A stretch of 64,000 bases of DNA from Candidatus Thorarchaeota archaeon (GCA_011364905.1 RDNZ01000002.1:102910-166909); one strand, 5' to 3'; shown: positions 10,042 through 30,135, counted from the first letter of the stretch. The notes: generated from the sequence alone by a model not told the origin. Translations and numbers: made by a program.

Positions 10042-10637
10042 GCACCTCCACCCGCATACATAGTATAGTAAATGAAACCAAGAATCATAATGAATCCAAT
10101 GAACTCAATAGCGCCGCTTCGAGGCTTATTCTTCAAGGCAGCCACTACAAGAGAGAGGTCTCCGGACCGCAAGGAGCAGTTGAAAAGAATCCCGAGAGCC
10201 ACCCACCAGAATACGAAAATCCAGAGTGGTTCCACATAGATCATTACGGGTAAGACTATCAAAGCAAATGCTGCAAAGACTGCAGCCACAACGTTCAGAA
10301 ACAGGACAATGAGTACAATGCCTACTCTAGGTGGTCTGTCGACCTTGAGGAATACATTGATCTCGCCATAGGTTGATGAACTTCCAACATCTTCGACATC
10401 AACCCTGAATCCCTTGGCAATAAGAAATCGTATCCCCATATAAGCGAGGGTTCCCGGAAGGAAGACAATAGTAAGAAACGTCATGAGCTTGTTTCTTGTC
10501 CAGTCCTCGAACTCGCGTTTCTGCCCAGACAACAACAGTAGGCCTCTCAGGATTGTGGCTCCAATGATTACATAGGGAGTCACACTGAATGAGAAGAACA
10601 GATTGGCAAGCATCAACGTTCCAATGTCAGATTGCAC
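10038..10637 (-). CDS. Membrane protein resembling M50-like zincin peptidases but lacking HExxH
   Basis: About 5 TM segments; FLPGTLAYMGIRFLIAKGFRVDV aligns to the PGxxxHExxH pattern; downstream SGD. Confidence 0.6.
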   Translation of the reverse strand: MQSDIGTLMLANLFFSFSVTPYVIIGATILRGLLLLSGQKREFEDWTRNKLMTFLTIVFLPGTLAYMGIRFLIAKGFRVDVEDVGSSSTYGEINVFLKVDRPPRVGIVLIVLFLNVVAAVFAAFALIVLPVMIYVEPLWIFVFWWVALGILFNCSLRSGDLSLVVAALKNKPRSGAIEFIGFIMILGFIYYTMYAGGGA

Positions 10638-10871
10638 TCTTCGAGATCCTTCCTCCCATTATGACTGTTGCCTATTCCATCGTGGCAGTTTGAGTCTTTC
10701 ATGGTAGGTATGTAAATGCACAGAGTATTCCTAAGCTTTCAGGACAGGCTATTTGAAGAACGATAAATAAGAAAGTAGGAAAATCTAAACAATAATATTC
10801 TCCCGTCTTTTTTAGAAGTTTTTGATTTCTATTTTTCGCGAATAAAGCACCCATATCGCTTATCTACTATA

Positions 10872-10987: not shown

Positions 10988-11974
10988 TTACACAAAGCTT
11001 TCCAGTGTTGTCTGTGTGTTACCAAACATTTTCCATATATGCACCAGCTCACGGGTTTTGGCTTCTGCCCTATCCTTCCCCATTGCAGGTTGGAGAAGTC
11101 TGACAAGTCTCGGAGTTATGAGCGGCTTTAAGGTTAGGTCCACGCCCTTTGCACTCATAAATGAGGCTTCGTCAAAAACCTCTCTGGCCTCGATGTAGTC
11201 CTCTCTTTCAGACAGTTTCAGACCTCTTGCTTTCAGCAAATATCTCAGACCGCCATATCGTTTCAATTCAATTGCACCTTTCCGTGGTCCGAGACCCTTG
11301 ATGCCTTTCTTATGAAAGTCACATCCGCAAACTATTGCTAGGTCTCGAAGCAGTTCAAGATCAAGGTCCAAAACTCGCTCCAGCTCACTAAGGGTTGTGT
11401 ACTCCATGGTCCCCTTGGACAACTGAAGACTCTTGATGACGTGAGGACTGCCGAATAACAGGGCATCAGCGTCATTGGAAACCACAGAACCTACTAGACC
11501 CTCTCGACACAGGACTGCACCAAACATCTCTGCCTCGGATGGCGATGTAATTGCGGGTATCCCTGCTGCACGACAAAGGTCTTTGACGTGATTGACTGCG
11601 AAGTACATCCTAACAGCAGGACTCTCTCTTAGTGACTCTACAATCTTAATGTCGTGTGTGTCCTGCTTGATGAGAAACCGTTCATATAGCATGTGAGCTG
11701 TAGTTATGAGTTCAGGATTCGGTTTACGTTTCAGGGATTCAGGCGGTCCATCGAAAAATAGCGCTGGAAGAATATGGCGTTTAAGCGCTTGACGAATCAG
11801 TCCAAAGGTTATGTGAATATGTGCCATGGGTATCTTGTTCGATGAGATCGGTCGAATGGTGGACAACCTGCGCATCAAATAGTTGGGAGCATCGACTGCA
11901 ATTTTGGGAGTGAACAGCTCTGAAACATTGGCCCACTTCCATGGCACCAGGTTCTGCCAGTTTTTCACTCCCAT
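10988..11974 (-). CDS. FEN1/XPG-family 5' nuclease (FEN1 paralog) with C-terminal PIP box
   Basis: MGV start; IAVD, FFDG, SEAE, SNDADALLFG and GCDF acidic active-site motifs; H3TH GIKGLGPRKG; C-terminal QTTLESF. Confidence 0.9.
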   Translation of the reverse strand: MGVKNWQNLVPWKWANVSELFTPKIAVDAPNYLMRRLSTIRPISSNKIPMAHIHITFGLIRQALKRHILPALFFDGPPESLKRKPNPELITTAHMLYERFLIKQDTHDIKIVESLRESPAVRMYFAVNHVKDLCRAAGIPAITSPSEAEMFGAVLCREGLVGSVVSNDADALLFGSPHVIKSLQLSKGTMEYTTLSELERVLDLDLELLRDLAIVCGCDFHKKGIKGLGPRKGAIELKRYGGLRYLLKARGLKLSEREDYIEAREVFDEASFMSAKGVDLTLKPLITPRLVRLLQPAMGKDRAEAKTRELVHIWKMFGNTQTTLESFV

Positions 11975-11979
11975 TCCAA

Positions 11980-12699
11980 TCAACCCGTTCCTTTGAGAGT
12001 CCTCGCTCCCTTGAGTCCCAGCCGCACCACCACTGGATCTGGTAGTGGATGAACAGGACTTCGTTCCACTTGTACTCTGAGACCATCAGCTGCCATATTC
12101 ATGCTTGCTATATGGACTGTTGTGTCCACGCCATGAGCAATCACATTCCCGCCAACTGGCTTCAGAGCGCCAGTGTCCCAGTCCCTGCTTGAGTGATCAG
12201 TCAAGGCAACATGAAGATCATTGTCATTCACTAGTATACGAAGAATCTCCAATGTGTGCTGAAGCGCACGCTGCCTACCCTTAGATCCGATTCTACCACT
12301 CAGGTTAAGGATGCCTGTGAGACTATCCACTGCGACTACTCGAACGTCCCTCATGCAGCCTATCCCCTGTGCTAGTTCCTGCAGGTCCGAAAGCTCAAGC
12401 ACCTGTCCCACTATCACATTTCTCAGCAGCTCAGCTTCCTTTCCAAGCAAGGCACGGGTGAGAGGTGAGCTAAAGTTATTCCCAGAATCGATGAATACAC
12501 TCCGTCCTCCATTGAGAACACCACCAACAACAATTGCATGAGCTACAGTGGTCAGAGGTTTTCTCTCTGAGCTATGTATCAGACTGATTTGGTTTGGTAG
12601 TATCACTTGTCCCAGAGTCTCATCCAATGGTCGTGGTCGTAACCGAACCAGTGATTCCTCATGAACTGGTATGTTATCAAGCGGTAGACTCTCCGGCAA
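11980..12699 (-). CDS. RadB/Rad51-paralog-like RecA-fold protein with degenerate Walker A
   Basis: LDETLG, SVFIDSGNNF, VVAVDSL and PVGGNVIAHG motifs; the P-loop is replaced by HSSERKPLT. Confidence 0.8.
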   Translation of the reverse strand: MPESLPLDNIPVHEESLVRLRPRPLDETLGQVILPNQISLIHSSERKPLTTVAHAIVVGGVLNGGRSVFIDSGNNFSSPLTRALLGKEAELLRNVIVGQVLELSDLQELAQGIGCMRDVRVVAVDSLTGILNLSGRIGSKGRQRALQHTLEILRILVNDNDLHVALTDHSSRDWDTGALKPVGGNVIAHGVDTTVHIASMNMAADGLRVQVERSPVHPLPDPVVVRLGLKGARTLKGTG

Positions 12700-13666
12700 C
12701 CTCTACACCTCCCATCGATAATTGCGCAATATCACGACCAAGTAGAACGTGAGCCTCTCGACCATGTGGTAGCTGTTCGAGGTCGAATCCCGGTGCGGTA
12801 TCACTTTTGATGACTACTCGTAACCCCGTTCTGTTTGGAAACACGGTGATACGATTAGGCCACATCTCAATAAGTTTCTTCACGGTGCTTTCCTCAACAG
12901 CCACCTTATACTCATTCAATGTCATGCCTATATCATCCTCCATTAGTGGAAGACTGAGTATCGCATTGGTCATGAAAAGTGAGAGAACCTGCAAGCTTTC
13001 AGCTCCCTTCTCAGCTAGTGCTTGCTGGACTTGTTTCAAGACCTTCTCTTCTCCTTCAGTTCGTACAATCAAGATGTCGCATTCTTCGTATCTTGTGATT
13101 GACACCGGAAGGAGTGGTCGTTCACGAAGAAGATCTAGGACTACTGCCCTCATACTATTCGGAAGGATTATTGCCTTCATGTTGAGCTTGTCAATGGACG
13201 TCCAAAATCTGCTATGTGAAACTGAACTCCGTCCTAGTATTGGAATCGAATGTCCAAAGGACGCCATTGGCTCCAGAAGGGCAGAAAATCGCTCCGTGAT
13301 GCTACCAGGCTCTTTTATTCTGCTACAACCGATAATAGTTCCACCCATTGCGAGAAAAGCAGCAATCAATCCAAATGGTAATACAACAAAGAGCATCACG
13401 ACTCCTGTATAGACGATGCAAGCCCATGAAACCACATTGAGTAAAAGGGACAGTGGTTCCTTGGTTTCCCTGCGGGCGATAAAGAGCATAATGATGGTTC
13501 CTCCCCAAACAATGACAAGAGGCTGAATATTTCCTAGCCGCCATGCTAGGACCACAGAAGCAACAGAACTCAGTAGCTGCCCACCCAGAAAAAGAGCAAC
13601 CGCTCCCGCCAGAGCATATACCATTAAGCGGAAAATTGACTTTCCGAACATTCGCTTCTCCTCCAT
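12677..13666 (-). CDS. Membrane protein (about 4 N-terminal TM segments plus a soluble domain)
   Basis: Hydrophobic N-terminal 115 aa; overlaps both neighbours. Confidence 0.75.
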   Translation of the reverse strand: MEEKRMFGKSIFRLMVYALAGAVALFLGGQLLSSVASVVLAWRLGNIQPLVIVWGGTIIMLFIARRETKEPLSLLLNVVSWACIVYTGVVMLFVVLPFGLIAAFLAMGGTIIGCSRIKEPGSITERFSALLEPMASFGHSIPILGRSSVSHSRFWTSIDKLNMKAIILPNSMRAVVLDLLRERPLLPVSITRYEECDILIVRTEGEEKVLKQVQQALAEKGAESLQVLSLFMTNAILSLPLMEDDIGMTLNEYKVAVEESTVKKLIEMWPNRITVFPNRTGLRVVIKSDTAPGFDLEQLPHGREAHVLLGRDIAQLSMGGVEVAGESTA

Positions 13667-14280
13667 TCTTGAGTTGGTACTGATAGTCGGACAACTCCTT
13701 TGATATCGATCATCATTCTTGCCAATGGGTTCCCATCAATCAACAATCTGGAGTCCCTCTCCAGGCTTCTCACTACCCGAATGTCCACTGGTTTCCAAAT
13801 CAGAATTGATTCGTGCATCACTGGTGTAACTCGTTCTTCCAGACTGCGAACTTCACTCACAAGGACAACCTTTACTCCTCGCTCCGTTAGAGCAACCAAT
13901 GATGGTAGAGCATTCTCGATCAAATCCCGACCCCACATTATCTCTTCGCGTCGAGTCATGTCAAGCACCCGTGTTATGGGGTCTACTACAATTAACGATG
14001 TGTCATCTGGAAGCATCTCACAGACTGAGAGTATGCCCTCTTGTACCTCTTTATGTCCATTGAAAATGTTCACAGTGATTTTGCTGCTGTTTTTTGTATT
14101 GGATTTCAAAGCTCTCACAAAGGAGCGTTTTCCATCAGCACAGATCCATCTCACAATACCGTCTCTTGCAGCTTCTGCAGCAAGGGAGCAGGCTAGTAGG
14201 GTCTTCCCAGATCCAGCCTCACCCCAGATATGGAAAAGGTCGCCCATCCTCAACAAAACTTTAGCCCCCAGTACTACCAC
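13624..14280 (-). CDS. RadB/Rad51-paralog-like RecA-family ATPase
   Basis: Walker A GEAGSGKT, Walker B LIVVD, VVLVSEVR; lacks the RadA N-terminal domain. Confidence 0.85.
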   Translation of the reverse strand: MVVLGAKVLLRMGDLFHIWGEAGSGKTLLACSLAAEAARDGIVRWICADGKRSFVRALKSNTKNSSKITVNIFNGHKEVQEGILSVCEMLPDDTSLIVVDPITRVLDMTRREEIMWGRDLIENALPSLVALTERGVKVVLVSEVRSLEERVTPVMHESILIWKPVDIRVVRSLERDSRLLIDGNPLARMMIDIKGVVRLSVPTQEWRRSECSESQFSA

Positions 14281-15943
14281 GCTCCTTCTTTCGGGTGGGA
14301 AAGTGAGTCCGTGATGATGAGCTTGTCACACTGTGACGCTGGAGTTTGCTTCGTTTAACAACCTGCTCACTGGTCTCATCCTCTGCAGCAAGGAGAACTT
14401 GGACCGACTCCGCTGGTTCTTCATCGACTGTCTTGGCAACGACCATAGGTGGGTCTGCAAACTCCTTTCTCGTCCGATCTGGTTCTTTTATGACCCTATC
14501 ATTTGCTCCAGGGACTTCCTCTGTGTTTCCCATCACCTGCAAAAAACTGTCGAGTTCATCTTCACTCTCTGCACTAGCCGGAGCCATTTCCTCTCTTACA
14601 GGAGGTTCCTCCGGTTCAGCAAGATCCTTGTCAATCTCCATGACAATCTTTTTACTGGCATGAAGGTTGAGGATATCATCAATCCTGTTTTTCACTTCGG
14701 GACTCAGAGCACCAACATCAAAGAGAGCGTTGTTAAGAACTCCAAGGTGTCCGATAATCTCATGTTCCTTCAAAGGTGTGCTGCTATGTCCGGTAAGGCC
14801 AACATACGCTAGACCGAGAGCTTCTTCCTCACCCTCCCCGAATTCTAACCCGATGTTCTTGAATAAGCTCAAGAATTTTTCAAGACCAGGATCACCAGAG
14901 AGATTAGGCATTTCGACAGTGCTAGTAGGAGTAAGCCTTACGCATTCATCTAATATTGTAAACAGGGAGCCCACTGATTTGTTGAAATCGCCAGTTTCTA
15001 TAGATTCGGCAGCACTATCCATCAGCGGGGTCACTATGAAGTTTAGTGTGCCAACGAGTTCAAGTCGGTTAGCATTCTCCATTATTGAAGATGTGACCCG
15101 GTTAGAATCTCCAACCTCAGACAAAGCAGAAACCTCTTCATTTAGAGCACTACGAAAGCTGCCTATTGCAGTGTTTGCTCCCTGGAGCATCCATGAACCA
15201 AGCAGAAATGATATGCAGAAAACGACAAGCGGGAAGATTAGTGTTCCATTATTCAATAACGCGCCTGCAATGCCGAACCCAGCCATCACCCCCATGACAA
15301 TACAGAGTATACCGAGCCAAGACCTCCTCAGACCTGTTTCTAAATCATCCCACTTAGTGGAGCTCACATTCTTCTGAACATCATGCAAGTGAGATCGAGA
15401 GTCACTACTTAGCAGGAGTCCAAGTTCATTATCAGGTAAGATACGGGATGAATCAGTAAGCCACGATAAGTCTCTACGAGAGCTGCCCTCCTTGTATACA
15501 GCGTAGATAGTACGAGTTTCATGAATTAGGGATGATGATTTCGAATCAATGGACCTCATAACAGAGAACTCCACTCGCCCAAATGACGATAGGAGAGACC
15601 TCGCCTCGAACGCGTCCAGTAGTCCTACATCTTTGAGGATGCTCTTCAAGGACCCATTGACACTTTCGAGTATTGCGGCTTGCATAGCCAGAGTGGAGCG
15701 ACCAAACCTGGCCTTCTTCAGGTCAAGTACATAAGCAACATCTACATAGACGCCCCTGGTTCCTGGAATGCCAACCAGTCGCACTCCCAAGACCAACCCA
15801 TTGGGATATTCTGCTGTTCTATGACCCGCTCCTTCTAGCACTCGAACAACGTCCGTGGTGGCCCGCTCCAAACTTGTGCCAATGGACGACTCACTCTCTT
15901 CTTCCTCAGTGATTTTTTCATCATCAACTGCTGTCATTAACAT
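14261..15943 (-). CDS. 560-aa protein with two central TM helices and an acidic, disordered C-tail
   Basis: TM pair at about aa 209-255; coupled within the operon. Confidence 0.75.
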   Translation of the reverse strand: MLMTAVDDEKITEEEESESSIGTSLERATTDVVRVLEGAGHRTAEYPNGLVLGVRLVGIPGTRGVYVDVAYVLDLKKARFGRSTLAMQAAILESVNGSLKSILKDVGLLDAFEARSLLSSFGRVEFSVMRSIDSKSSSLIHETRTIYAVYKEGSSRRDLSWLTDSSRILPDNELGLLLSSDSRSHLHDVQKNVSSTKWDDLETGLRRSWLGILCIVMGVMAGFGIAGALLNNGTLIFPLVVFCISFLLGSWMLQGANTAIGSFRSALNEEVSALSEVGDSNRVTSSIMENANRLELVGTLNFIVTPLMDSAAESIETGDFNKSVGSLFTILDECVRLTPTSTVEMPNLSGDPGLEKFLSLFKNIGLEFGEGEEEALGLAYVGLTGHSSTPLKEHEIIGHLGVLNNALFDVGALSPEVKNRIDDILNLHASKKIVMEIDKDLAEPEEPPVREEMAPASAESEDELDSFLQVMGNTEEVPGANDRVIKEPDRTRKEFADPPMVVAKTVDEEPAESVQVLLAAEDETSEQVVKRSKLQRHSVTSSSSRTHFPTRKKERGSTGG

Positions 15944-18104
15944 TCCTCCCTAATCGCTCTTCTATTCCCCCAAGGAGCCCACTGCTCAGTTCCACGAGTC
16001 TTGAGAGACCCCCTAATCCTGCAAGCACAACAATGCTGGCTAGCAACCATCGTGACCTCTCCAGTAGACTATATGCATCCCCCACTGGAATACCAACGTT
16101 CTCTGAAATGTCTCTTATGGACATAGAAGTGGTAGCGGCGGCACCAATCAGGTTTTCAAACGACTCATCAAGCTCGGAAACAGACTCCATCGACACAAGA
16201 TGCCTTACGAGAGAGAGAAGCGAAACAGCATCCTCTGTGAATGGCATCATGGCCATTAGCTCTCGTATCGTCCTCATGCGGAGATACAGCCTATTCACTG
16301 TCCTTCCGAGTCTTGTGATCTTGAAAGCGCCTTCCTTGCTTCCCTCAATGAGCCCCAATCGTGATAATGCACCTGTGGGACTAGACTCTTCCATGGCGAT
16401 GGGCACGATGTAGTTCGCTAGAGGTCGTATCTTTTCATTGCGTGATGCCTTGAGTCCGAGAGAAACCAGATGCATACAAAGGATACCAGTTTCATCCAAT
16501 GGATTACCACATGAACAACTTGCACCTTCTACAGTGCCACTGGTCTGGAGTCGGGTGGAGAACCGACAGGTGAAGCTCCCACCTTGAAAACCTGAAACTA
16601 TTCCTCCGAGGACATCCTCGCTGGTTTCCCTGATGCTGACGGAGCCTAGTGCGTCTTTTCTTGCAGCCTGAACTGTGTCAGGCAGGGCATGTTTCTCAAT
16701 AACCGATTCCGCTGAGATCTCTCCGAGATGTAGGGGCCTCATGGGACTTCTAACATCTCTCACCGCGCAGAACACGAGATAAGACTCGCTCATTATGTCC
16801 TCCATCTGTTTCACTGTGCTCTCATTCATGGTGTCAAGAAGGACAAGAATTTGCTCGGTAAGCGATGCCGCTGAACCGAGCCTACTCCTCACTCTTTCAT
16901 ATCGAGGAATCAGGGTTTCACCAACCTCATCAAAGTATCTGCGCTTCACAAGCTCGCACTCACCTCTACTACTAGTGAGGATGACACCAAAGCCCATAAC
17001 ATCATGTCCAGGTCTCCCCGCACGTCCAAGCATTTGATGGACTGTGTTAGCAGAGAGCATCTCTCTATGATCCTCCGGCGAACGACAACTGGTGAGCACA
17101 ACGGTACGAGCTGGGAGATCCATTCCTGCAGCTAGGGTAGATGTTGCACAGATTACACGTAACATGCCTTTTCTGAACAAGCGCTCCACCAAAGCTCTGA
17201 CACTCGAGCTGAGTCCAGCATGGTGGAATCCTACGCCATTATGCAAGACTTTCCGTAGGGGCGCCGGAACTGTCATGAAGGATGTTTCTACAGAGTTAAT
17301 TTCATCGTCCAGGGCTTTTCGCTCAATGGAACCAAGTTGCCTAATCACATTTTCAGACAATCGTTCAGCCTCAAGTTCAGCAAACCTTCGGGTTCTGTGA
17401 AAGGTGATGACTTGACCGTTTGCCTGCACTACCGTCATCACTGTTTTTTGGACTGCTCGGGCCTTATCGGGTGTGTGGACTACCTTACAGACAAGCGGAA
17501 CAGGACGCTCATCAGATGCAACAAGTCCGCAACCAAGCCATTCCGCTAGTTCATCTGGGTCCTTAACTGTGGCTGAGAGTGCTACTATCTGCAGGTCGTC
17601 AATGCTTCGTTTCAAACGAAGGATAGTGCTTTCTAGTCTTGCTCCTCGTGTCGAGTCCGAAAGGTTTTGGACCTCATCTATGACCACTGTTCCGACCTCT
17701 GGAAGCCACTCCACCTGGTGTCTCAACAGAGAGTCTGCTCGTTCATAGGTGGTCACAATGATGTCGTATTCTGCCATATCCTCTCCTGAAAGATGCAGGT
17801 CACCGGTAGTCACTCCAATTCTGATGGCATTTTCTTGGTACCGCTCTCTCAGAACTCGTGTTATCTGATATGCCAGAGCTCTTAGGGGTACCAAAAACAA
17901 GCCTCTTCGACCATTGAAAATCGATCTAAGCAGGCCCATCTCCCCCACCAATGTTTTTCCCGATCCTGTTGGAGCACTCACCAATATACTGGCCCCATCA
18001 AGAAGACCCTTGTCAATTGCCTCAGTCTGAACACCCCTTGGTGTGACACCAACTTGCTCTAGCATCCGAGTGACACTTGCAGGGATATCAGTGACAGACA
18101 TCAT
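15924..18104 (-). CDS. hel308: Hel308/Ski2-like SF2 DNA helicase with an inserted SWIM zinc finger
   Basis: APTGSGKT, PLRALA, DEVQ, LSAT, FHHAGL, TSTLAAGMDLPA and QMLGRAGR; SWIM motif CSC-x10-CMH. Confidence 0.9.
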   Translation of the reverse strand: MMSVTDIPASVTRMLEQVGVTPRGVQTEAIDKGLLDGASILVSAPTGSGKTLVGEMGLLRSIFNGRRGLFLVPLRALAYQITRVLRERYQENAIRIGVTTGDLHLSGEDMAEYDIIVTTYERADSLLRHQVEWLPEVGTVVIDEVQNLSDSTRGARLESTILRLKRSIDDLQIVALSATVKDPDELAEWLGCGLVASDERPVPLVCKVVHTPDKARAVQKTVMTVVQANGQVITFHRTRRFAELEAERLSENVIRQLGSIERKALDDEINSVETSFMTVPAPLRKVLHNGVGFHHAGLSSSVRALVERLFRKGMLRVICATSTLAAGMDLPARTVVLTSCRSPEDHREMLSANTVHQMLGRAGRPGHDVMGFGVILTSSRGECELVKRRYFDEVGETLIPRYERVRSRLGSAASLTEQILVLLDTMNESTVKQMEDIMSESYLVFCAVRDVRSPMRPLHLGEISAESVIEKHALPDTVQAARKDALGSVSIRETSEDVLGGIVSGFQGGSFTCRFSTRLQTSGTVEGASCSCGNPLDETGILCMHLVSLGLKASRNEKIRPLANYIVPIAMEESSPTGALSRLGLIEGSKEGAFKITRLGRTVNRLYLRMRTIRELMAMMPFTEDAVSLLSLVRHLVSMESVSELDESFENLIGAAATTSMSIRDISENVGIPVGDAYSLLERSRWLLASIVVLAGLGGLSRLVELSSGLLGGIEERLGRNVNDSS

Positions 18105-20452
18105 ACCTCGGACCCAACCTCCTCTGATTGACGCAGAGCCATGCTACCCTTCATGGTTATCCGATAATTCTTGTAGGAAACTCCTGCATGGGACTCGCTA
18201 CCACGAAGAATCAGACTCGCATTCTCCAACCGTGCAAGAATAGCCTCGATGTCAACCTCCGTATGGCCCTTTGCGTTGAGAAAACGTCTGACAGACTCCT
18301 CAGTGAGAGGCTCGTAGCGGGTAAGGAGCTTAAGAATCTCTTTCACAGATGCTCTGTCTCGTCCTCCAACCACAGCAAGTAGTGTTTTTGGTTTCCCTGC
18401 TTCGGGCCCGTCATCCGTTTTAGTTAGACTAGGCCTCGGAAGCATGTCAACTCCCTCATTGGATAGTGTTCTAAGCCCTGGTTCAGGTGCAATCTTGAAT
18501 GGCATACAAGTCTTTGCCTGTTCGTGCGACATGAGAGCATAGCCTCGCTCCATTACTCTCAGGAACGAACCTTCTCGCGATGATTGACGCGCCTTGCTAT
18601 GAATTCCTGTCCCAACAACATCTAATGACAAGAGGTCAGATACATAAGCAATATCAGCGGACTCCCGCAACCTTAGAGCGATACATGAACCAAAGGCGTC
18701 CGCCGCATCCCACATTAAGGCTGATGGGTTGTTTACACTGAGTATAAGAGGTCCTCTCTTGAGGAGCCTCCGAACGATTCTCTCAGCCATTACCCCCCGT
18801 TTGGTATACCTGAAAGTGCTTTTATTTGTGACAAGATGTTCAGGCATATCAATGACAGTGACCAAATCAGATTCTTTTGCAAGTCCTGACAATTTGAGGC
18901 TCATAAGATCCAGTGCAAACATATCGAGATCAAGAGCTCCAATCGCGAGGTTCACAACTACAAGCTCATGAGAGGCGATCCTACTAAGAGAAATCGTCTG
19001 AGTACCATAGAATGCTTTTGCTCCTGACCCCTGATAGAGCCTCTTGATGGCATCGAGCGCAAGTGCTGAAGACTTGGATAATCTAACATTCTGTGGAGGG
19101 ACTGCACCCTCCTGAAGGGATTCATGCTCAGGATCAATAACTACATCGGCGAGTGTTCCATTCCCGAGAGCAACCACTCTGCTCAATGCAACCTCAAAGT
19201 CAGCGGCTGGGCTGAGATTAGTCCCAGCAAGAGTTTCCAATAGCAGTAGCAACTCCGAAACATACTGTGTTCTGGGAATTCCCTCAGAGTCCACAGGATT
19301 CAGTACAAAGTCCTTCCCGAGACTAACGGCGAGACCGCTGGAGCTGACACCAGCCAGACTTTGGCAATCATCGTTTATTGTGAGCACTAGAACCTTCTTT
19401 CCCTTGGCTAAAATCTGGTCAATAAGAACACTGAGAACTTGCTTTCGATCCCGCCAATCTCCTCCGCATAATAAGAGACCACGTTCAAGGTCAGAATGCA
19501 TCAACCCCACTGAGGGACCTGTCTTTAGGGTTTCGGGATTCACAACAACGCCCAGAGGGTAGTCATCAGACCTGCTTCTTATTGGCGCAATGAACTCCCC
19601 CGGAACGTTACTTCCCACCTCAGGACCTAGTTCGCTTGGCAGTTGTACTAGCCACTCTGCCAACTCCTTTCCTGTGGCAAAGAAAGTGGGCGAACTGCTA
19701 CAGAGGTCCCACTCTTCAAGTCTTTGGCCAAGGTCTTTCTCCTTCAACCTCCTAAAGCCGCTGTCAGGAACACTCCCTTTCACTTGCCCCTCAACTAGTC
19801 GGACGTCAGATTCCGTATGAGAATGTCCAACAAAATACAGCTGTGAACGCCAGAGCCCCCCCCGTGCATGAAAGTAGGTCTTCCTCTGTGATGAGGAAAT
19901 ATGATTGAGATATCTCTCGATTATGGAAGTGACAACACCATCTCTTGCAACCTGTTTTGAGTCAGATGGAAACAGATCTGCAACCATCAAGAAACCATGT
20001 GAACTGTCTAGACCTCGAAGAAGTTTGCTTAGATTTCCTTGTAGGATTGGCCGAGCTTTCTTCATGTTGAGTGCAATGAGATGGCTTTCCTTTCCAAGAC
20101 CCCTACAATGTAGCGATTTTTTCTCTTCACTGTAACTCACATCTGGGTCGGGTACCCTATACCAACTAGTATCATCGAGCGACCGAGTTTCAAGGTAGTT
20201 TTGAATCAAGGGCAGAACAAGCATCAGCATTAGGATTATTCCAGTAATGAATATCGTGACATAAGGCAGCTGAATCACTGTAATCATAATAACCAATGAG
20301 AGTCCAAGAGCATAATCCCATGGAAGCTTGACTGACCTGTCATCCCATCGTATCTCTGTGTCTGTCGTTATGGTCATGCCAGACGCCTCAAGCTGGTCCA
20401 TAGGATCCTGCGCAGGCTCTGAGCCCATGATGTTCCCTCGTTTCTTAGTCAA
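18101..20452 (-). CDS. Membrane-anchored HerA/VirB4-like P-loop protein, catalytically degenerate, with C-terminal winged helix
   Basis: N-terminal TM pair. DLERGLLLCGGDWRDRKQ sits at the Walker A position, followed by KVLVL, FVLNP, VIDMPEH (Walker B position), GPLILSVNNPS and IALRL. C-terminal LARLENASLI...YRITMKG. Confidence 0.7.
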   Translation of the reverse strand: MTKKRGNIMGSEPAQDPMDQLEASGMTITTDTEIRWDDRSVKLPWDYALGLSLVIMITVIQLPYVTIFITGIILMLMLVLPLIQNYLETRSLDDTSWYRVPDPDVSYSEEKKSLHCRGLGKESHLIALNMKKARPILQGNLSKLLRGLDSSHGFLMVADLFPSDSKQVARDGVVTSIIERYLNHISSSQRKTYFHARGGLWRSQLYFVGHSHTESDVRLVEGQVKGSVPDSGFRRLKEKDLGQRLEEWDLCSSSPTFFATGKELAEWLVQLPSELGPEVGSNVPGEFIAPIRSRSDDYPLGVVVNPETLKTGPSVGLMHSDLERGLLLCGGDWRDRKQVLSVLIDQILAKGKKVLVLTINDDCQSLAGVSSSGLAVSLGKDFVLNPVDSEGIPRTQYVSELLLLLETLAGTNLSPAADFEVALSRVVALGNGTLADVVIDPEHESLQEGAVPPQNVRLSKSSALALDAIKRLYQGSGAKAFYGTQTISLSRIASHELVVVNLAIGALDLDMFALDLMSLKLSGLAKESDLVTVIDMPEHLVTNKSTFRYTKRGVMAERIVRRLLKRGPLILSVNNPSALMWDAADAFGSCIALRLRESADIAYVSDLLSLDVVGTGIHSKARQSSREGSFLRVMERGYALMSHEQAKTCMPFKIAPEPGLRTLSNEGVDMLPRPSLTKTDDGPEAGKPKTLLAVVGGRDRASVKEILKLLTRYEPLTEESVRRFLNAKGHTEVDIEAILARLENASLILRGSESHAGVSYKNYRITMKGSMALRQSEEVGSEV

Positions 20453-20722
20453 CTAGGTCCTTCCCCCTTGTCTTGCCAAGACTTTCAACATCATCTTAAT
20501 GCGAATCAGCATTTTCTGATCTGAAGAGTTCACCACTAGTGAATCGTTCATAATGACCAGCTCAGGATGCTCATGCTTCGAAGGATGCCCGAGTACCATT
20601 AGAACTGGCTCCTTGGATACAGTTGTCCAAGTGTATCCATGGCCCCGTTTCAGGAAGTCCATCACCGCGTCAGCCTCCACACCTGATGGAATGTTTAGTG
20701 ATACATCCTCACCCACTGACAA
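20453..20722 (-). CDS. Small hypothetical protein (89 aa)
   Basis: Translationally coupled on both sides. Confidence 0.7.
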   Translation of the reverse strand: MSVGEDVSLNIPSGVEADAVMDFLKRGHGYTWTTVSKEPVLMVLGHPSKHEHPELVIMNDSLVVNSSDQKMLIRIKMMLKVLARQGGRT

Positions 20723-21302
20723 CGCCTCCTGTGTTCACCAGTTGCATCTCGTAGAGTCCTGCACGCTCCACAGGTGTATGAGGATAGGATGAACGCATGG
20801 CACTCTCTAACGTTGTCACATCATCAAACACCTTCTCAGCCAACATCCTGATTATGCGTGCCCCATTCCAAAATCGGAGAGACCGTCTGACAACCTGCAT
20901 ACCAACCAGCGTTGAGTTGTCATCCAAAGGGCGACACACGAAGAACCGAACCTCACATTGACTCTCTTTCTTGAACTGCTCACTCATAGCTCTCAGTACC
21001 TGTTTGGCTGCGTGCGAAACATCAATCCCCAAGGGTACGCTAGCCAGTAAGCAACCTGCTTGAACCTCTACAGTCCAATTGCGACGAATGGCCATGGTGC
21101 CGGTTGCCTCATCCCAGAATACAACGACGGGTCGTTTCCATAAAACGAAGAGAGCGATTACTAGAGACGCTAAACCAATCCCAACCAAGGTCTCGAAAGC
21201 AAATCTTCCTTTGGGGTCCATGATGATTCTAGTTGACCATGCCGCCAGAACAGCAGCTGGAACAGTCCATTTCACCCACTCATAATCCTGGTAATTCCTC
21301 AT
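20709..21302 (-). CDS. Membrane protein with 2 N-terminal TM segments
   Basis: Two hydrophobic segments followed by an alpha/beta domain; GGAGG RBS. Confidence 0.75.
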   Translation of the reverse strand: MRNYQDYEWVKWTVPAAVLAAWSTRIIMDPKGRFAFETLVGIGLASLVIALFVLWKRPVVVFWDEATGTMAIRRNWTVEVQAGCLLASVPLGIDVSHAAKQVLRAMSEQFKKESQCEVRFFVCRPLDDNSTLVGMQVVRRSLRFWNGARIIRMLAEKVFDDVTTLESAMRSSYPHTPVERAGLYEMQLVNTGGVVSG

Positions 21303-21305
21303 TCA

Positions 21306-23243
21306 TCACACCCTCCTCACAAACATCCCGATGGCGTCTCGCAGCTCATCCTCTCCTCTGTATGGCCAGAGATCTGCGGCTGTGTCCTCTCCGAATACGT
21401 CAATGTGTTTCAAGAACCGCTTGTCTAATAGCACAACTATGCCTTGATCCTCCGGTGACCTCCTGAGTCTTCCTGCCATTTGTGCAACTTTTCGTATTGA
21501 TGGTACAACCACAGCATAATAGTACCCTGAGCCAGCTCCGTATCTTCGATCATAGAAGTCCTGCAACGCTTTTTGATGACTTGTCGGAGGACTGAATGGT
21601 ATCCCCACACCAATAATGAGGTCCACCATGCTAGACCCCGCCTCCACCAAGTCTACTCCTTCGCTCACCTTTCCACCATAAACACAGAACAAGGCATGGG
21701 GCTGCGAGGCGAGAGCTTCCTTCACATCATCAATTCTACTGCGTCTATCCTCAATAAGACGCTCTCGAAATCCTGCGTTTACTCCAAAACTCAAGACATC
21801 TCGCATGATTGCATAGCTCGGGAAAGCAATCATGGCGCTCTTGTTGGCGGGAACTGCCTCGAGTACGGTTTCGATCCTCTCACTCAAAGTACGCCAAAGG
21901 TCAGGTCCTCTGGACTTGTAGCTTGTTGATACTTCTCTGTCCACTAGAATGAGCCTTGTTCCTCGTGGATAGGGACTGGAAAGTTCCTCACCTTTTGCAC
22001 TACCAATTCCAAGTATTCGTTTGTAGTGAGAGAGTGGTCTCAGAGTTCCAGACATAAGGAGCGAGGAGCGTGCCATCCTGAGTATCGGAGCAATTAGTCC
22101 AGCAGCATTCAGTGGACGAATCTTCAGGATAACGCGCATGATGTCTTGGTGCTCCTCCCAGCCGGTTGACTTCTCAATGGTGACCAACCAGTCATCACTC
22201 TCGGTAGCTTTTCTTCCAGCATAGAGGAAAGACACTAGTCGATCCACTGGTGTGTCAACAGGGACAGTCTCATCCGCACCTTCAAGCAGAGTACTATACT
22301 CGATGAGCTGTTCCAAATCGCCTTGTGCAGCAAAACGCGGATAAGCGTCCCACTTGTCAAGACATCGTTCGTCCTTCAATGTGTCGAGATTCACCGAAAC
22401 GGTCTCCCAAAGAAAATCGACTGTTTCCTCCAACCAACGCACACCAGTTTCTTTGACGATGTCGCGCTTGTGCTCTCTGAGCCATAGCAAGTCAGCCCCA
22501 CGCAGCTCCGCAGCCTCAGCCTCTAGAACATGAGATGAGAGGTTATGAGCCTCATCCACAAGGATGTCAATCTCGTACAAGCCAATTCCTAGCGATGAAA
22601 GAAGGGCCATTTGGACACGGCTTCTAAACAGGTAGTCATAGGGACCAACAATGACTCTACTTTTCTTAGCGCACCATCTAAGCACCTCGTAGGGACACAT
22701 ACCATTGTCACGGCCAACATCCTCAGCTACCGACTGACTCACGACATTGTCTTTGAGGAGCTCATCTATAGTTTCTAGGAATGCCTGACGAGGTTGATGT
22801 CGTCCATCAGCATTTCTTCTGTAGCAATTCCAATAATAGGTGCAGTTGCCCGTTTTGACAAGGGCTGCGCACTCACGCATGAAACCCAACGAAGAAATAT
22901 GCCTCATCTGACCCTTCATGGGACACACGTGTTTCCTAGAAACCATGCTGGTAGCTGTAAGCAGTGTATCCTGGGTGTAGATGCGTAATTGTGTGAGTTC
23001 TTCCTCGAACACCTTTGATTGCGAGTGAGTTCGGGTAAGCACGAGTAATCGTGACTCAGGATCATTCACACGTGCAGCCAAGTAACCGGACAGAGCCGCA
23101 ATGGTCTTTCCGATTCCGCAGTCGGCAGAGAGTAGACCCACCGTTCCCTCAGAGAATACTTCCTCTGCATATCGTAATGCGCGTTCTTGGTGCGGTCGTG
23201 GCTCATAGGGGAACCAGTCCATTGGGTCAGGTAGAGTTGCCAT
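21306..23243 (-). CDS. xpd: XPD/Rad3/DinG-family Fe-S DNA helicase
   Basis: Q motif PYEPRPHQ, CGIGKT, four Fe-S Cys (VCP...EC...NC...MCPY), DEAH, SGTL, SEGVD and QMAGRLRR. Confidence 0.93.
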   Translation of the reverse strand: MATLPDPMDWFPYEPRPHQERALRYAEEVFSEGTVGLLSADCGIGKTIAALSGYLAARVNDPESRLLVLTRTHSQSKVFEEELTQLRIYTQDTLLTATSMVSRKHVCPMKGQMRHISSLGFMRECAALVKTGNCTYYWNCYRRNADGRHQPRQAFLETIDELLKDNVVSQSVAEDVGRDNGMCPYEVLRWCAKKSRVIVGPYDYLFRSRVQMALLSSLGIGLYEIDILVDEAHNLSSHVLEAEAAELRGADLLWLREHKRDIVKETGVRWLEETVDFLWETVSVNLDTLKDERCLDKWDAYPRFAAQGDLEQLIEYSTLLEGADETVPVDTPVDRLVSFLYAGRKATESDDWLVTIEKSTGWEEHQDIMRVILKIRPLNAAGLIAPILRMARSSLLMSGTLRPLSHYKRILGIGSAKGEELSSPYPRGTRLILVDREVSTSYKSRGPDLWRTLSERIETVLEAVPANKSAMIAFPSYAIMRDVLSFGVNAGFRERLIEDRRSRIDDVKEALASQPHALFCVYGGKVSEGVDLVEAGSSMVDLIIGVGIPFSPPTSHQKALQDFYDRRYGAGSGYYYAVVVPSIRKVAQMAGRLRRSPEDQGIVVLLDKRFLKHIDVFGEDTAADLWPYRGEDELRDAIGMFVRRV

Positions 23244-23245
23244 CC

Positions 23246-23833
23246 TTATTCCCCCAGGTACAGACAGTTCTCGGCATTATGTATTCTGAACTTTAGAGAA
23301 AAGTAGGAGCGAAGCAACAGATGGAATGTCTTTGCCGCTGCTGGCGAGTTGAAACCGTTCTTTTTGCCCACCATGCTTTCCAGTATCTGAGGGCTGAAAC
23401 CTCTTCTGCGAGCTTGTCTCCAGAAGGTTCTCTCCACCTCCTCTACTGTGGCTTTATAGAAGTCAAGTGTCTGCTTCACTACTCGTTGGAGATACTGCAC
23501 AGCCTCCTTGGCCCTATGAGGGATCTCTGATACCTTCGTTTCAGTGGGGAGATAGACCGCCATACCTTCCCTGCTTTCAAGGTACACCTCCGAAGGTACA
23601 CCTCTGGTACCACGTAGAACCTCAAGATGAGACAGAAGTCGCGGCAGCTGCGAGAGGGTAGGTCTTGCTCTATCTCGCCAATCCACCGTCGTGACCACAT
23701 ATAATTCTGGGTCAGGTTCGTGGTAAGCAACTGGAACGGTGGTCAGTCTGTGGGATGTATCACGCATTAAGAGGTTGGTCATGTTTATGACAGATGCATG
23801 GGATTGATACGCAGGAGGCAGAACCACTGCCAT
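23246..23833 (-). CDS. Hypothetical protein (family Y; distant paralog at 36500)
   Basis: Coupled in the operon; weak motif match to 36500..37252. Confidence 0.75.
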   Translation of the reverse strand: MAVVLPPAYQSHASVINMTNLLMRDTSHRLTTVPVAYHEPDPELYVVTTVDWRDRARPTLSQLPRLLSHLEVLRGTRGVPSEVYLESREGMAVYLPTETKVSEIPHRAKEAVQYLQRVVKQTLDFYKATVEEVERTFWRQARRRGFSPQILESMVGKKNGFNSPAAAKTFHLLLRSYFSLKFRIHNAENCLYLGE

Positions 23834-24273
23834 CAGTATTCGTCCCCCACTGCTTTCAGAATCCCATCCATGTTCACAATTAAGTCCTCGTCCTCCAGCT
23901 GGTCTAAGAACCTAACAGCCTTGTCGATTTCGATGCCTGCTTCCTCGCACTCTTGAAGGACCCTATCACGACTCACTCCTGTTCCACGATTCAAGTCACT
24001 GAGGTCAGACACTATATTCAGCACGCGCTTCTTGACACCAAGACCATGTCTCGACTTGGACCTATGCGTAGTTGGTTTCCTCCAGACAATCCTCTGTATC
24101 TCTAGAAGAGCTCCCTCAACTGAATCGACATACTTCCAATCAGGACTAGGCTCGATTCTTCTGGAACAGAGATTGCACTTTGATTCCTCATCCTCACTGT
24201 ACACAGTAGCGTATCCGGTATAGCCGCAATGAGGACACATGAAGATTCTGTACATCTGTTCCTTTGAGGTCAC
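23833..24273 (-). CDS. Zn-ribbon plus C-terminal winged-helix protein
   Basis: CPHC...CNLC; the C-terminal VSRDRVLQECEEAGIEIDKAVRFLDQLEDEDLI resembles an MCM C-terminal-type WH domain. Confidence 0.75.
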   Translation of the reverse strand: MTSKEQMYRIFMCPHCGYTGYATVYSEDEESKCNLCSRRIEPSPDWKYVDSVEGALLEIQRIVWRKPTTHRSKSRHGLGVKKRVLNIVSDLSDLNRGTGVSRDRVLQECEEAGIEIDKAVRFLDQLEDEDLIVNMDGILKAVGDEY

Positions 24274-25340
24274 TCCTCTTGCTCCTCCTCCTCAGTCTTC
24301 TTTCCCTTCTTCTGTTTCTTCTCGTCCTCGTCATCATCCGGCGAACCTAGAGACCCAAGTTTCTCAGAGATCATCTTTTCGGCGTTTTTCTTCTCTGTTG
24401 CATCGTTGTATAGACCGCCCCAGCCAATATGTACCTCAACATCAAACTCCGGAACTCCCGAGTTGTCCTTGAGTGAAATCTTCCGCTTCTTCTGCGCTCC
24501 GACCCTTGTGAAGAACCGATAGTCAGATGCGTGACTCAGAACATGACCACCAACAGGTGCAGATGGGTTTCCAGACCCATAGGTAGAGATTTGAGTCGTC
24601 ACCTGATTTGTATACACAAAGATGGCATCGGTTGCAAGACCAAGACGACGCATCCAGTTCATCAGGGAGTTGATACTATACTGACGAGATGCCAAAGTAC
24701 CGATGCCAGTGTACTCCTGCCGAAACAGACCGGTAAAGGAGTCTATCACCAGCATGCTGTACTCGCCTTCAGCCAGCATGAGTTGAATCTGCTCGGCATA
24801 CTCCTCCATCTGACTGCTGAGCGCAATAGTTGCCACACTAATGTTACCAAGCACAACCTCTGGATCCAAGCCCCACCGTATCGCATTTGCACGGATATGC
24901 TTGGTTTTGAAAGATGACTCCGTGTCCAACCACAAGATCCTTCCTTCTAAGCCGCCTTGTTCAAGGGGCAACTGGCACCTCACTGCAAGATGGTGACAGA
25001 GGAAAGTCTTCCCTCCTCGCGCATTACCGTATATCTCAACTATTGATCCTGCTTCCAAACCGCCGAAAAGCTTGCTATCCAAGCTTTCAATACCGAACTT
25101 CAGACGCGGGACCTCTGCTTGTTGCTTCTCCAGTTCAATTCCTGACTTGAACCCAAATTTCCCAGTGACATCTCGTGCGTTTCGTATGATCTTCGCAACG
25201 GTTGCTTCACCCAACTTGGTGCGAGTCTGAAGGTCAATAGGATTCTGAACACTGAGTATTTCAGCGGTCGTGACGAAAGCTTCTTTGAGCCGCTTCGCCG
25301 CTGCGGGGCCGACACCTGGAACTGCCTCCACATCGGTCAA
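24270..25340 (-). CDS. radA: Divergent full-length RadA/Rad51-type recombinase
   Basis: N-terminal HhH VPGVGPAAAKRL, GFKSG polymerisation motif, Walker A GNARGGKT, WLDTE, VIDS, FRQEY.G.GTLASRQ, TNQV and PVGGHVLSHAS. Confidence 0.9.
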   Translation of the reverse strand: MTDVEAVPGVGPAAAKRLKEAFVTTAEILSVQNPIDLQTRTKLGEATVAKIIRNARDVTGKFGFKSGIELEKQQAEVPRLKFGIESLDSKLFGGLEAGSIVEIYGNARGGKTFLCHHLAVRCQLPLEQGGLEGRILWLDTESSFKTKHIRANAIRWGLDPEVVLGNISVATIALSSQMEEYAEQIQLMLAEGEYSMLVIDSFTGLFRQEYTGIGTLASRQYSINSLMNWMRRLGLATDAIFVYTNQVTTQISTYGSGNPSAPVGGHVLSHASDYRFFTRVGAQKKRKISLKDNSGVPEFDVEVHIGWGGLYNDATEKKNAEKMISEKLGSLGSPDDDEDEKKQKKGKKTEEEEQEE

Positions 25341-25777
25341 CTGCCAATCATCTCCTCGATTGGCCCCCTCAAAGGCACGAGTTTCTTGAAGGAGTCAAGC
25401 TCCCTACGAGGAATCAAGACTTCCTTTCCATTTCGATAGAGGTCCATTCCTGGAAACAGCGAAACCACAGCTTGCTGTCGTATTGGCGGTAATGAGAAGC
25501 TAAGTCCTTGAGAAGTCATTTCTCCCACGACACTTACATAACCCCCTAAGGTCTCATACAATGACCCGTCTTTGGGAGTCGTCCCAGGTTCAGCTGGTGG
25601 GACCTCCAGCATGAATTTGAAGAGGTCCTCTAGTGACTCGAAGAAATCCCTCCAGTCGGGTCTTGCTTCTCGATGAAATACCTCGTTGATTCCCGCCTTA
25701 GCTCCAGCGATCCAAGCTGGATCAGGTAGTTCATCTATACTATTTGTACTACTTTGCAGATATTCCTGAATGTACAT
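25337..25777 (-). CDS. Hypothetical protein (family X; clear paralog at 37253)
   Basis: GAGGTGA RBS; overlaps the radA start; shares AEPGT.PK and TLGGYVSV.GE with 37253..37720. Confidence 0.85.
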   Translation of the reverse strand: MYIQEYLQSSTNSIDELPDPAWIAGAKAGINEVFHREARPDWRDFFESLEDLFKFMLEVPPAEPGTTPKDGSLYETLGGYVSVVGEMTSQGLSFSLPPIRQQAVVSLFPGMDLYRNGKEVLIPRRELDSFKKLVPLRGPIEEMIGS

Positions 25778-25781
25778 CGCA

Positions 25782-25898
25782 TCACCTCTTTTGATTGAAC
25801 TTCCTCCGTAGAGGCATTGGCATGTTTCGTGCTATTCCTAGATGCCCACTATCTCGATTGATGTCGGACTCGAATGCCTCTGTAAGTTTCAATGACAT
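25782..25898 (-). CDS. Possible 38-aa leader ORF (MSLKLTEAFESDINRDSGHLGIARNMPMPLRRKFNQKR)
   Basis: AGGTGA RBS 6 nt before the ATG; its TGA lies in the RBS of the next gene. It is too short to appear in the supplied ORF track. Confidence 0.45.
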   Translation of the reverse strand: MSLKLTEAFESDINRDSGHLGIARNMPMPLRRKFNQKR

Positions 25899-26077
25899 TC
25901 ATACTCACCTGTCAAAAGATGAGACATCAAATAATATTCAAACTTCCGAGAGTTGACAATAAATGACATAAGAGCCACCTGTCGGAAAAAAAGCTCTAAT
26001 AATATGTCCGATGCAAAAATATGAGTTATTATCATTTATATTTTGATTTTAGATGTTATAATTGCTCTATTGAGTAT

Positions 26078-26098
26078 GCCTTAGGTCCAAAAATGCAA
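26078..26098 (-). promoter_or_regulatory. Shared 21-bp upstream motif, copy 2 (TTGCATTTTTGGACCTAAGGC)
   Basis: Upstream of the recombination operon; 180 bp from the leader ORF ATG. Confidence 0.6.
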
Positions 26099-26339
26099 TA
26101 TATTCTATCTTGTAGCTGCGAATCTGAAGAGTCAGTCCCCATTGCCCCTGCACGTTTCGGCGCCTGATGGAGTAGTTCTCACATATTATTGCGATGCAGA
26201 ACTCACCCCTAAGCATGCTTTTGGCATATCCACTCAGGAGATTGTATCTTGTAGCATGAAACTGACCAGTCTTTTCAGTTGTCTATGTAGGCACGTTTGA
26301 AACGAGTGTGATCAAAATCACAATGCAGTGTTCATTGGA

Positions 26340-26360
26340 TTGCATTTTTCGACCAAAAGC
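26340..26360 (+). promoter_or_regulatory. Shared 21-bp upstream motif, copy 3 (TTGCATTTTTCGACCAAAAGC)
   Basis: 18/21 identical to copy 2, on the opposite strand; 215 bp upstream of the GH3 gene. Confidence 0.6.
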
Positions 26361-26574
26361 CATGCTGAAAAATGTGTCAAAATTCGATTTTTGGTGTTTA
26401 GAGCGTTTAAAGCAGATATTTCTCTATCGGAAGCATCGATACAGCTCATATCAAATGTAACACGGCCCATAGATGAGAGGCAAGTTCTACCGACCACTTA
26501 TGATATTCCGTTTCTACCAACTCCTGTAGTATCGGGAAGTTCTCTTCCCTAAAACCTACGGAGGCAAAGAACAG

Positions 26575-30043: not shown

Positions 30044-30135
30044 ATGAAATTTGAGGAAGAAAATGTATCTAAAACGCACGCGAGGGATCTGGGCCCTCAG
30101 ATACCCAGTTACTATTGGAGGGAACAAGTACACAA

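Follow-up and report, generated by a model that had tools for sequence, protein, structure and literature searches.

A conserved Asgard archaeal operon joining recombination enzymes to membrane proteins and a VirB4-like protein without a Walker A motif

A 64,000-nucleotide stretch of DNA from a Candidatus Thorarchaeota archaeon (GCA_011364905.1, RDNZ01000002.1:102910-166909), hereafter called the window, carries on its minus strand an operon of 14 genes, which brings divergent homologous-recombination enzymes together with transmembrane (TM) proteins, among them a VirB4-like protein, g08, that has lost its Walker A motif. It is very probable that the operon encodes a dedicated, vertically inherited recombination module, which is anchored to the membrane at least in Thorarchaeota. 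Our tentative reading of its function, to which we give a probability of roughly 0.45, is a recombination machine at the cytoplasmic face of the membrane that handles imported or exchanged DNA. The system is conserved and, as far as our searches reach, undescribed: full-text literature searches found no paper describing the cluster or a system of this composition, in line with a preliminary description of this DNA, made from its sequence alone, which knew of none.

Operon structure and recombination enzymes

The 14 open reading frames (ORFs) all lie on the minus strand between positions 10988 and 25777 and are named g01 to g14 by order of transcription. With junctions taken from the longest ORFs, neighboring genes overlap by 4, 4, 1, 14, 4, 20, 20, 43, 23, and 4 bp, are separated by gaps of 2 and 3 bp, or in one case abut exactly, so that the earlier claim of 14 codirectional genes overlapping or at most 3 bp apart is borne out by the ORF listing. 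Overlaps of 1 to 43 bp, an abutment, and gaps of 2 to 3 bp leave no space for internal promoters or terminators, and a consensus scan of the operon found sigma-70-type promoter-like and intrinsic-terminator-like sites only at the level of shuffled sequence. g01 to g14 are one translationally coupled operon, implying that they are probably made from a single transcript and in stoichiometric amounts. The operon starts with the ATG at 25777, preceded by the ribosome-binding site GAGGTGAT; the outer limit first proposed, 25898, does not hold, because its ATG opens a frame of 17 codons only. The gene order and identities proposed from sequence agree with the Pfam and NCBIfam matches, the TM segments, and the fold of g08. 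Six of the genes encode recombination enzymes or their relatives:

24270..25340, minus strand: g02, full-length divergent RadA/Rad51 recombinase with an acidic/basic tail (Pfam Rad51, E 3.9e-57, plus HHH_5, the HhH N-domain)
21306..23243, minus strand: g05, XPD/Rad3-family helicase paralogue (DEAD_2, HBB, Helicase_C_2)
15924..18104, minus strand: g09, Hel308/Ski2-type helicase paralogue with a SWIM zinc finger (DEAD plus Helicase_C)
13624..14280, minus strand: g11, 218-residue RadB-like RecA-fold ATPase (TIGR02237 radB, E 4.4e-8)
11980..12699, minus strand: g13, 239-residue RadA-fold paralogue without a P-loop, a pseudo-ATPase (Pfam Rad51, E 9e-8)
10988..11983, minus strand: g14, FEN1/XPG-family 5'-flap nuclease paralogue (XPG_I, E 1.6e-17, plus XPG_N)

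Motif conservation in these proteins was read from alignments of 30 to 41 orthologues. g02 scores 242.8 bits against the RadA model NF003301 (cutoff, 259). In the PDB, where RadA and RAD51 proteins match it with 160 to 196 bits, Pyrococcus RadA (196 bits) comes first, and human RAD51 reaches 175 bits. It keeps the Walker A motif GxxxxGKT, Walker B, and the L2 motif PVGGH across orthologues. Judged by its sequence, g02 is a member of the RadA/Rad51 family and not the housekeeping orthologue. g05 and g14 score 170.8 bits on TIGR00604 (rad3; cutoff, 246.95) and 104.8 bits on TIGR03674 (fen_arch; cutoff, 352), respectively, indicating that both are divergent paralogues. The top PDB matches of g05 are archaeal XPD proteins (~130 bits), and its four iron-sulfur cysteines (Cys107, 125, 134, and 183) and DEAH box (VDEAHNL) are conserved; g05 scores higher on the PADLOC type IV-A DinG model (255 bits over its full length) than on TIGR00604 rad3 (171 bits). 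g14 is closest in the PDB to archaeal FEN1 (~87 bits) and keeps the catalytic carboxylate motifs. Its C terminus carries a PCNA-interacting peptide (PIP) box, QxTLExW/F, found by a strict regular expression in 24 of 30 orthologues, with a QxxLExW/F tail visible by eye in 29 of 30, suggesting that the nuclease probably rides on PCNA.

g09 reaches 344 bits on the Hel308 model NF002654, whose cutoff is 887, and its top PDB matches are archaeal Hel308/Hjm (~235 bits), with the core match covering residues 7 to 445. Inserted behind this helicase core is a SWIM signature, CSCG-x10-CxH, whose Cys and His residues are kept in 41 orthologues and which is absent from canonical Thorarchaeota Hel308. g11 keeps both Walker A (GxAGSGKT) and Walker B in the orthologue alignment, and g13 has no Walker A in 31 orthologues but retains an L2-like PxGGN motif. 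Both are related to g02, with hhalign probabilities of 98.3% for g11 and 99.1% for g13, and in an all-against-all hhalign comparison of the 14 families, the RadA-g11-g13 group is the sole internal relation. Apart from g13, every recombination enzyme of the operon keeps its catalytic or P-loop motifs.

Are these genes the only copies in the genome, or are they dedicated paralogues, as the preliminary description had supposed? The same genome carries canonical copies of radA (477 bits), fen1 (407 bits), and xpd (292 bits) on contigs other than that of the operon. No canonical hel308 was found in this genome, which is 80.8% complete; among five near-complete relatives, four have a canonical hel308 (817 to 838 bits) beside the operon copy (325 to 348 bits), and all five have a canonical radA. 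Hence, the operon copies are dedicated paralogues, and the supposition stands. In a maximum-likelihood tree of RadA, the canonical Asgard proteins form one short-branched clade (support, 90/80), while the system-linked copies, including g02, sit on long branches that all fall outside it. This pattern fits an old duplication; the tree is unrooted, so it does not by itself prove a single origin. Outside the window, the canonical XPD gene of the same genome (G000:C46:441-3769) has a RadB-like gene less than 1 kb behind it, a second pairing of a helicase with a RadA paralogue.

The VirB4-like protein, its partners, and their distribution

The signature gene of the system encodes a protein built of four parts:

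18101..20452, minus strand: g08, 783 residues, with a TM hairpin (residues 43 to 85), a VirB4-like N-domain, a VirB4/HerA-fold domain, and a C-terminal winged helix

The preliminary call of a HerA/VirB4-like protein was confirmed by an AlphaFold model (predicted local distance difference test [pLDDT], 77) and by fold searches. Foldseek with this model gave TrwK/VirB4 and HerA as top matches (E ~1e-13), and in VIA-align the best match was the VirB4 C-terminal domain 4ag5 (Z 28.6; root mean square deviation, 2.6; 323 residues), compared with Z 25.8 for HerA 4d2i. Full-length TrwK aligns to g08 residues 100 to 669, indicating that part of the VirB4 N-domain is covered as well. The position of Walker A is occupied by CGGxxxxR in 28 of 28 aligned orthologues, and none of 11 distant relatives examined has a Walker A motif; Walker B reads D-x-P-E in most orthologues and is unrecognizable in the copy of the sister family (G037). 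With no Walker A in any orthologue, g08 is unable to act as a motor in the way that CedB does. The best-conserved motif of the protein is a near-invariant basic loop, HSKARxSSRESSFLR (residues 618 to 632), which is a candidate DNA- or partner-binding element and lies partly within a low-confidence stretch of the model (residues 612 to 623); the winged helix, which is of a DNA-binding type, is also highly conserved. A profile search of 1.84 billion representatives returned only 185 relatives of g08, and wherever a source is named, it belongs to Loki-, Hel-, Baldr-, or Promethearchaeota; all of these proteins are annotated as "hypothetical." This inactivated conjugation-type protein has so far been seen in Asgard lineages only.

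g08 was found in 53 of 85 genomes of the Thorarchaeota family and also in its sister family; among the family genomes without a match, about a third of the total, are some with a completeness of at least 90%. The same 14 genes occur in the same order, at 25 to 60% amino acid identity, in essentially every long enough Thorarchaeota contig examined, which places the cluster far beyond chance, and its position is stable, often beside the same divergent GH3-family gene. In the sister family (G037), the system is shorter and runs RadA, zinc-ribbon/winged-helix protein, g04, XPD, g08, Hel308, and g10, followed by dn1, a gene described below. A check of synteny across genomes thus finds the full order conserved in the Thorarchaeota family and a reduced one in its sister family.

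Beyond these two families, the g08-like proteins change in form. Shorter versions of 480 to 570 residues, made of the C-domain and the winged helix, are found in several other Asgard families and are preceded, where looked at, by a separate gene for 250 to 360 residues that matches the N-part of g08; in the largest family, a phylum search turned up long versions (~1260 to 1310 residues) in 36 of its 135 genomes. Nine loci of other Asgard lineages were inspected, and six of them have a Hel308-like gene near the g08-like gene. These linked Hel308-like genes score 409 to 509 bits on the g09 profile, against 351 to 360 for canonical Thorarchaeota Hel308, and carry the SWIM signature in the same relative place as g09. 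RadB-, FEN-, and RadA-like genes each stand near the g08-like gene in some of the nine loci, and each of the five genomes checked has a divergent RadA no more than 25 kb away from it on the same contig. A smaller core recurs in several other Asgard lineages: the dead VirB4-like protein and a SWIM-Hel308 are kept, in most cases along with a RadB-like, FEN-like, or divergent RadA gene.

The remaining genes of the operon encode three TM proteins and four soluble ones:

20709..21302, minus strand: g06, 197 residues, two N-terminal TM helices (hydrophobic stretches 10 to 30 and 30 to 56 in 42 sequences) and a conserved soluble domain of 140 residues
14261..15943, minus strand: g10, 560 residues, alpha/beta N-domain, 2-TM helical hairpin (207 to 256), helical C-domain, and disordered acidic tail
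12677..13666, minus strand: g12, 329 residues, four N-terminal TM helices (conserved hydrophobic segments) and a conserved soluble C-domain
25337..25777, minus strand: g01, 146-residue soluble protein, the first gene of the operon, with orthologues at the same position in Thorarchaeota loci
23833..24273, minus strand: g03, zinc ribbon (CxxC...CxxC) and probable C-terminal winged helix, with four invariant Cys in 9 orthologues
23246..23833, minus strand: g04, 195-residue soluble protein conserved in Thorarchaeota and the sister family (G037)
20453..20722, minus strand: g07, 89-residue soluble protein conserved at this position, with no family match

Conserved hydrophobic stretches in 32 to 42 orthologues fit 2, 2, 2, and 4 TM helices for g06, g08, g10, and g12, respectively, supporting the original view that the membrane proteins are real. 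Their even numbers of TM helices place the soluble parts of each protein on one side of the membrane, and by size and charge this side is presumably the cytoplasm. Eight of the operon's protein families have no annotation at all, and searches of Pfam, NCBIfam, PADLOC, and PHROGs gave nothing usable for the operon's unknown proteins. For g06, there was no family match, and a PDB profile search gave only a weak hit to an uncharacterized protein (E 0.32); a faint resemblance of g06 to the g08 N-part was not upheld by the all-against-all hhalign comparison. The AlphaFold model of g10 has a pLDDT above 90 for residues 30 to 450; neither a PDB profile search with g10 nor Foldseek and VIA-wide searches with its model gave a specific match, and resemblances to ESCRT-III, SMC coiled coils, and ABC TM helices (Z ~10 or less) were set aside as generic long helical hairpins. 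Named members of the g10 family come from Thorarchaeota and a few Promethearchaeota, all "hypothetical," with a weak match in G037. The ESM Atlas held no usable match for g10 or g12, and a weak PDB match of the g12 TM region to SLC26A9 (E 3.4e-4) was judged compositional.

Among the soluble proteins, g01 has no match in Pfam, NCBIfam, PADLOC, or PHROG, and g04 has no significant family or PDB match. g03 shows weak profile matches to the C-terminal region of MCM7 (E 0.044) and to the RpoP zinc ribbon. Of 36 g04 orthologues, 14 have a PIP-box-like QxxLxxYF motif about 25 residues from the C terminus, with the Q replaced in the window's copy; it may be a second PCNA contact or merely a conserved helix.

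Imported DNA, chromosome repair, and other readings

Downstream of g14, two further genes on the same strand are conserved beside the operon:

10038..10637, minus strand: dn1, 199-residue membrane protein with about five TM helices, a conserved downstream neighbor
2927..9790, minus strand: giant surface protein of 2287 residues (Big_1, Prenyltrans, Big_3_5), a conserved same-strand neighbor

dn1 follows the operon in 13 loci and in 6 of 6 further Thorarchaeota genomes, and in G037 it stands directly behind the g10-like gene; it is a possible 15th component. The giant protein consists of a signal peptide, a prenyltransferase-like alpha/alpha toroid, immunoglobulin-like domains, and a C-terminal TM anchor. 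Its orthologues (2590 to 2760 residues) lie behind dn1 in 6 of 6 further Thorarchaeota genomes, and in G037 a relative with 23% identity takes the same place. These two conserved neighbors count in favor of DNA import or exchange, which is a plausible function.

How might the parts act together? Anchored in the membrane, g08 would join the 2-TM, 2-TM-hairpin, and 4-TM proteins in building a ring or platform, and the platform and its TM partners would hold DNA that arrives at, or lies against, the membrane. The XPD-family and SWIM-Hel308 helicases, whose families have the established polarities 5'-3' and 3'-5', would unwind this DNA from an end, while the FEN1-type nuclease g14 would trim 5' strands or flaps, a sharing of tasks that resembles RecBCD or HerA-NurA. 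g02, aided by g11 and g13 as a mediator pair, would then pair the single strand with the chromosome by strand invasion, and PCNA-linked synthesis and flap removal would complete the event. The DNA would most likely come from another cell, with which the giant surface protein and dn1 would make contact; the conserved giant protein and the VirB4 ancestry of g08 make such incoming DNA the most attractive substrate.

This scheme invites comparison with its nearest described counterparts, Ced in Sulfolobales and Ted in Thermoproteales, both of them type IV secretion systems that have been domesticated and that combine a VirB4-like ATPase with a VirB6-like channel and a VirB2-like pilin (PMC9905601). 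CedB and CedD jointly mimic the VirB4 N-domain (PMC11868833), and Ted loci carry Rad50 and HerA genes (PMC9905601, PMC11868833). Like Ced and Ted, the operon is a chromosomal archaeal system with a membrane-associated VirB4/HerA-fold protein, small 2-TM proteins, and a recombinational use of DNA, and the split of the VirB4-like protein into N-part and C-part genes in other Asgard lineages recalls CedD plus CedB. It differs in that g08 has lost Walker A and reads D-x-P-E at Walker B in most orthologues, in that neither a CedA/VirB6-like channel of 6 to 7 TM helices nor a CedA1/VirB2-like pilin is recognized in the operon, in the complete recombination toolkit, which is undescribed for Ced or Ted, in the absence of detectable sequence similarity, and in its Asgard lineage. 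Since g08 lacks the marks of an active ATPase and no channel or pilin is recognizable, we do not file the operon as a member of either. The system would work like Ced or Ted import but would include the recombination step itself and have something else in place of the membrane motor. Should DNA exchange be its function, Ced and Ted would be joined by a third, independent way in which archaea import DNA.

Two other comparisons concern the enzymes. HerA-NurA with Mre11-Rad50, which resects DNA ends in archaea, likewise encodes a HerA-fold ring protein together with a 5' nuclease, upstream of RadA; in the operon, however, the ring protein is ATP-dead and membrane anchored, the nuclease is of the FEN1 type rather than NurA, and two helicases of opposite polarity stand in place of Mre11 and Rad50, neither of which was detected there. 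The bacterial helicase-nucleases RecBCD and AddAB, with their RecA loading, share a logic with the operon, in that linear DNA ends are handled by a nuclease and a recombinase along with a pair of motors that run in opposite directions. This is an analogy and not homology: the families are unrelated, the operon's proteins are separate polypeptides, and no Chi-like control is known for them.

Several observations weigh against the import or exchange of DNA. g08 appears, from its motifs, unable to hydrolyze ATP at the canonical site, which leaves the operon with no evident membrane translocation motor. The search for a small 2-TM hairpin protein of the pilin type, limited to the operon, found none, and g06, g10, and g12 gave no sequence-profile match to solved type IV secretion components in the PDB. 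The even TM numbers and large one-sided domains of g06, g08, g10, and g12 look like tethering and not like an obvious pore, and hardly any part of these TM proteins lies outside the cell. The g08-like protein is split in most other Asgard lineages, with a C-terminal gene that has no TM hairpin, and g10 is confined, in the searches run, to Thorarchaeota and the sister family, suggesting that membrane anchoring may be a lineage-specific elaboration of a cytoplasmic module. The giant surface protein is parted from the operon in several relatives by a gene on the opposite strand, which makes its coregulation with the operon no more than putative; in five other Thorarchaeota genomes (L081 to L085), a gene of 560 to 690 residues on the opposite strand stands between the FEN1-like gene and dn1 (e.g., L082:297-2342, on the minus strand of that locus) and is absent from the window. 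Finally, we infer the association of the 14 products from operon structure alone.

Because no motor, channel, or pilin was found, internal repair stays a serious rival, although we consider it rather unlikely. Here the operon would encode a membrane-tethered factory for repair and recombination of the cell's own chromosome, with no outside DNA involved and with the dead VirB4/HerA/FtsK-like ring acting as a DNA clamp; its tasks might be rescue of broken or stalled forks, crosslink repair, or clearing of DNA trapped at the division site. The one-sided domains of the TM proteins, the lack of a TM hairpin in the C-terminal gene of the split g08-like protein in other lineages, the fold that g08 shares with FtsK and HerA, and the predicted PCNA binding of g14 through its PIP box all suit such a factory, and HELQ together with RAD51 paralogues acts at eukaryotic forks (PMC13125761, PMC13623763). 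A full canonical repair set is already present, however, and a surface-anchored giant protein is conserved beside the system. Moreover, the closest fold match of g08, including part of the N-domain, is the conjugation protein VirB4 and not FtsK.

A role in defense against viruses or plasmids, in which a membrane helicase-nuclease module (Hel308/HamB-like, DinG/XPD-like, and HerA-like) destroys invading DNA, is very unlikely. Many HerA-fold structural neighbors of g08 are indeed defense proteins (SIR2-HerA, DUF4297-HerA, TdpAB, and DndH), g09 matches HamB models with up to 133 bits, and g05 has the DinG match already given. Yet g09 is much nearer Hel308 (344 bits) than HamB, no HamA (DUF1837) partner is found among the operon proteins, and no PADLOC defense-system model matches any of the eight unknown proteins. 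A fixed chromosomal position, full gene order across the class, and vertical evolution are also unlike defense islands. Defense systems are not known to include a strand-exchange recombinase together with a pair of mediator-like paralogues, which counts against this role as well. Least credible of all is the reading that the operon belongs, as a remnant or a module, to an integrated conjugative element or a provirus with recombination genes of its own: VirB4-like proteins are hallmarks of conjugative elements (PMC9905601), but the GC content of the operon (0.45 to 0.50) is close to that of the remaining window (0.41 to 0.49) with no marked composition shift, the window holds no tRNA gene, no integrase gene was noticed, though none was specifically searched for, the neighbors (GH3, dn1, and giant protein) stay the same across many genera, and g08 is widespread in the family, with relatives across the phylum.

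The reading as a machine for imported or exchanged DNA can be carried further, to an Asgard apparatus for contact-dependent exchange of chromosomal DNA coupled directly to recombination: an ancient, vertically inherited mating-and-recombination machine that would prefigure the specialized recombination toolkit of eukaryotes, its meiotic part included. We regard this extension as improbable. The toolkit parts concerned may be the Rad51-like recombinase, the Rad51-paralogue mediators, the HELQ-like SWIM-Hel308, the XPD-family helicase, and the FEN/EXO1-like nuclease. Here, in archaea, a Hel308-type helicase and a SWIM finger occur alongside Rad51 paralogues, which echoes the eukaryotic HELQ-BCDX2 and Shu complexes. 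Like HELQ-BCDX2 and Shu/SWS1, the operon combines a Hel308-family helicase with RAD51 paralogues, one of them ATPase-dead, and an associated SWIM finger; unlike them, it has the SWIM finger inside the helicase and has archaeal paralogues encoded beside membrane proteins. No known prokaryotes are more closely related to eukaryotes than the Asgard archaea, and the operon gives the question of DNA exchange and recombination among them a testable object. If DNA exchange were its function, the system would bear on ideas of how sex arose and of how genes flowed while eukaryotes emerged.

Upstream region and neighboring genes

The operon is preceded by an intergenic region that it shares with a divergently oriented gene:

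25778..26574, minus strand: upstream intergenic region, presumed promoter and leader, shared with the divergent GH3-family gene; AT-rich at ~25990 to 26070

A comparison of the sequences upstream of the operon in 26 loci found no conserved k-mer besides the ribosome-binding site and defined no promoter. A 10-mer, GAATATTATT, has exact copies on the minus strand at 10791-10800 and 25930-25939, in each case ~162 nucleotides upstream of a start codon (those of dn1 and g01), and was considered as a shared promoter motif; it was rejected, as it occurs in the window no more often than chance would give and relatives do not conserve it upstream of g01. The operon leader (25778-25900, minus strand) contains two very short frames, the one opened by the ATG at 25898 and another of 13 codons from the ATG at 25823, the latter terminating just ahead of the g01 start.

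The divergent gene at 26575-28122 (plus strand) encodes a GH3-family protein resembling acyl-acid amido synthetases; its place beside the operon is conserved in 16 loci of Thorarchaeota as well as in the sister family. Farther along the plus strand, at 29075-31104, are two tandem TFB/TFIIB genes (322 and 329 residues), followed at 31264-32790 by the gene for a 508-residue TPR protein. In Sulfolobus, the UV/Ced response is governed by alternative TFBs (PMC6101591). Two further loci, L083 and L019, likewise have a TFB gene close to the system.

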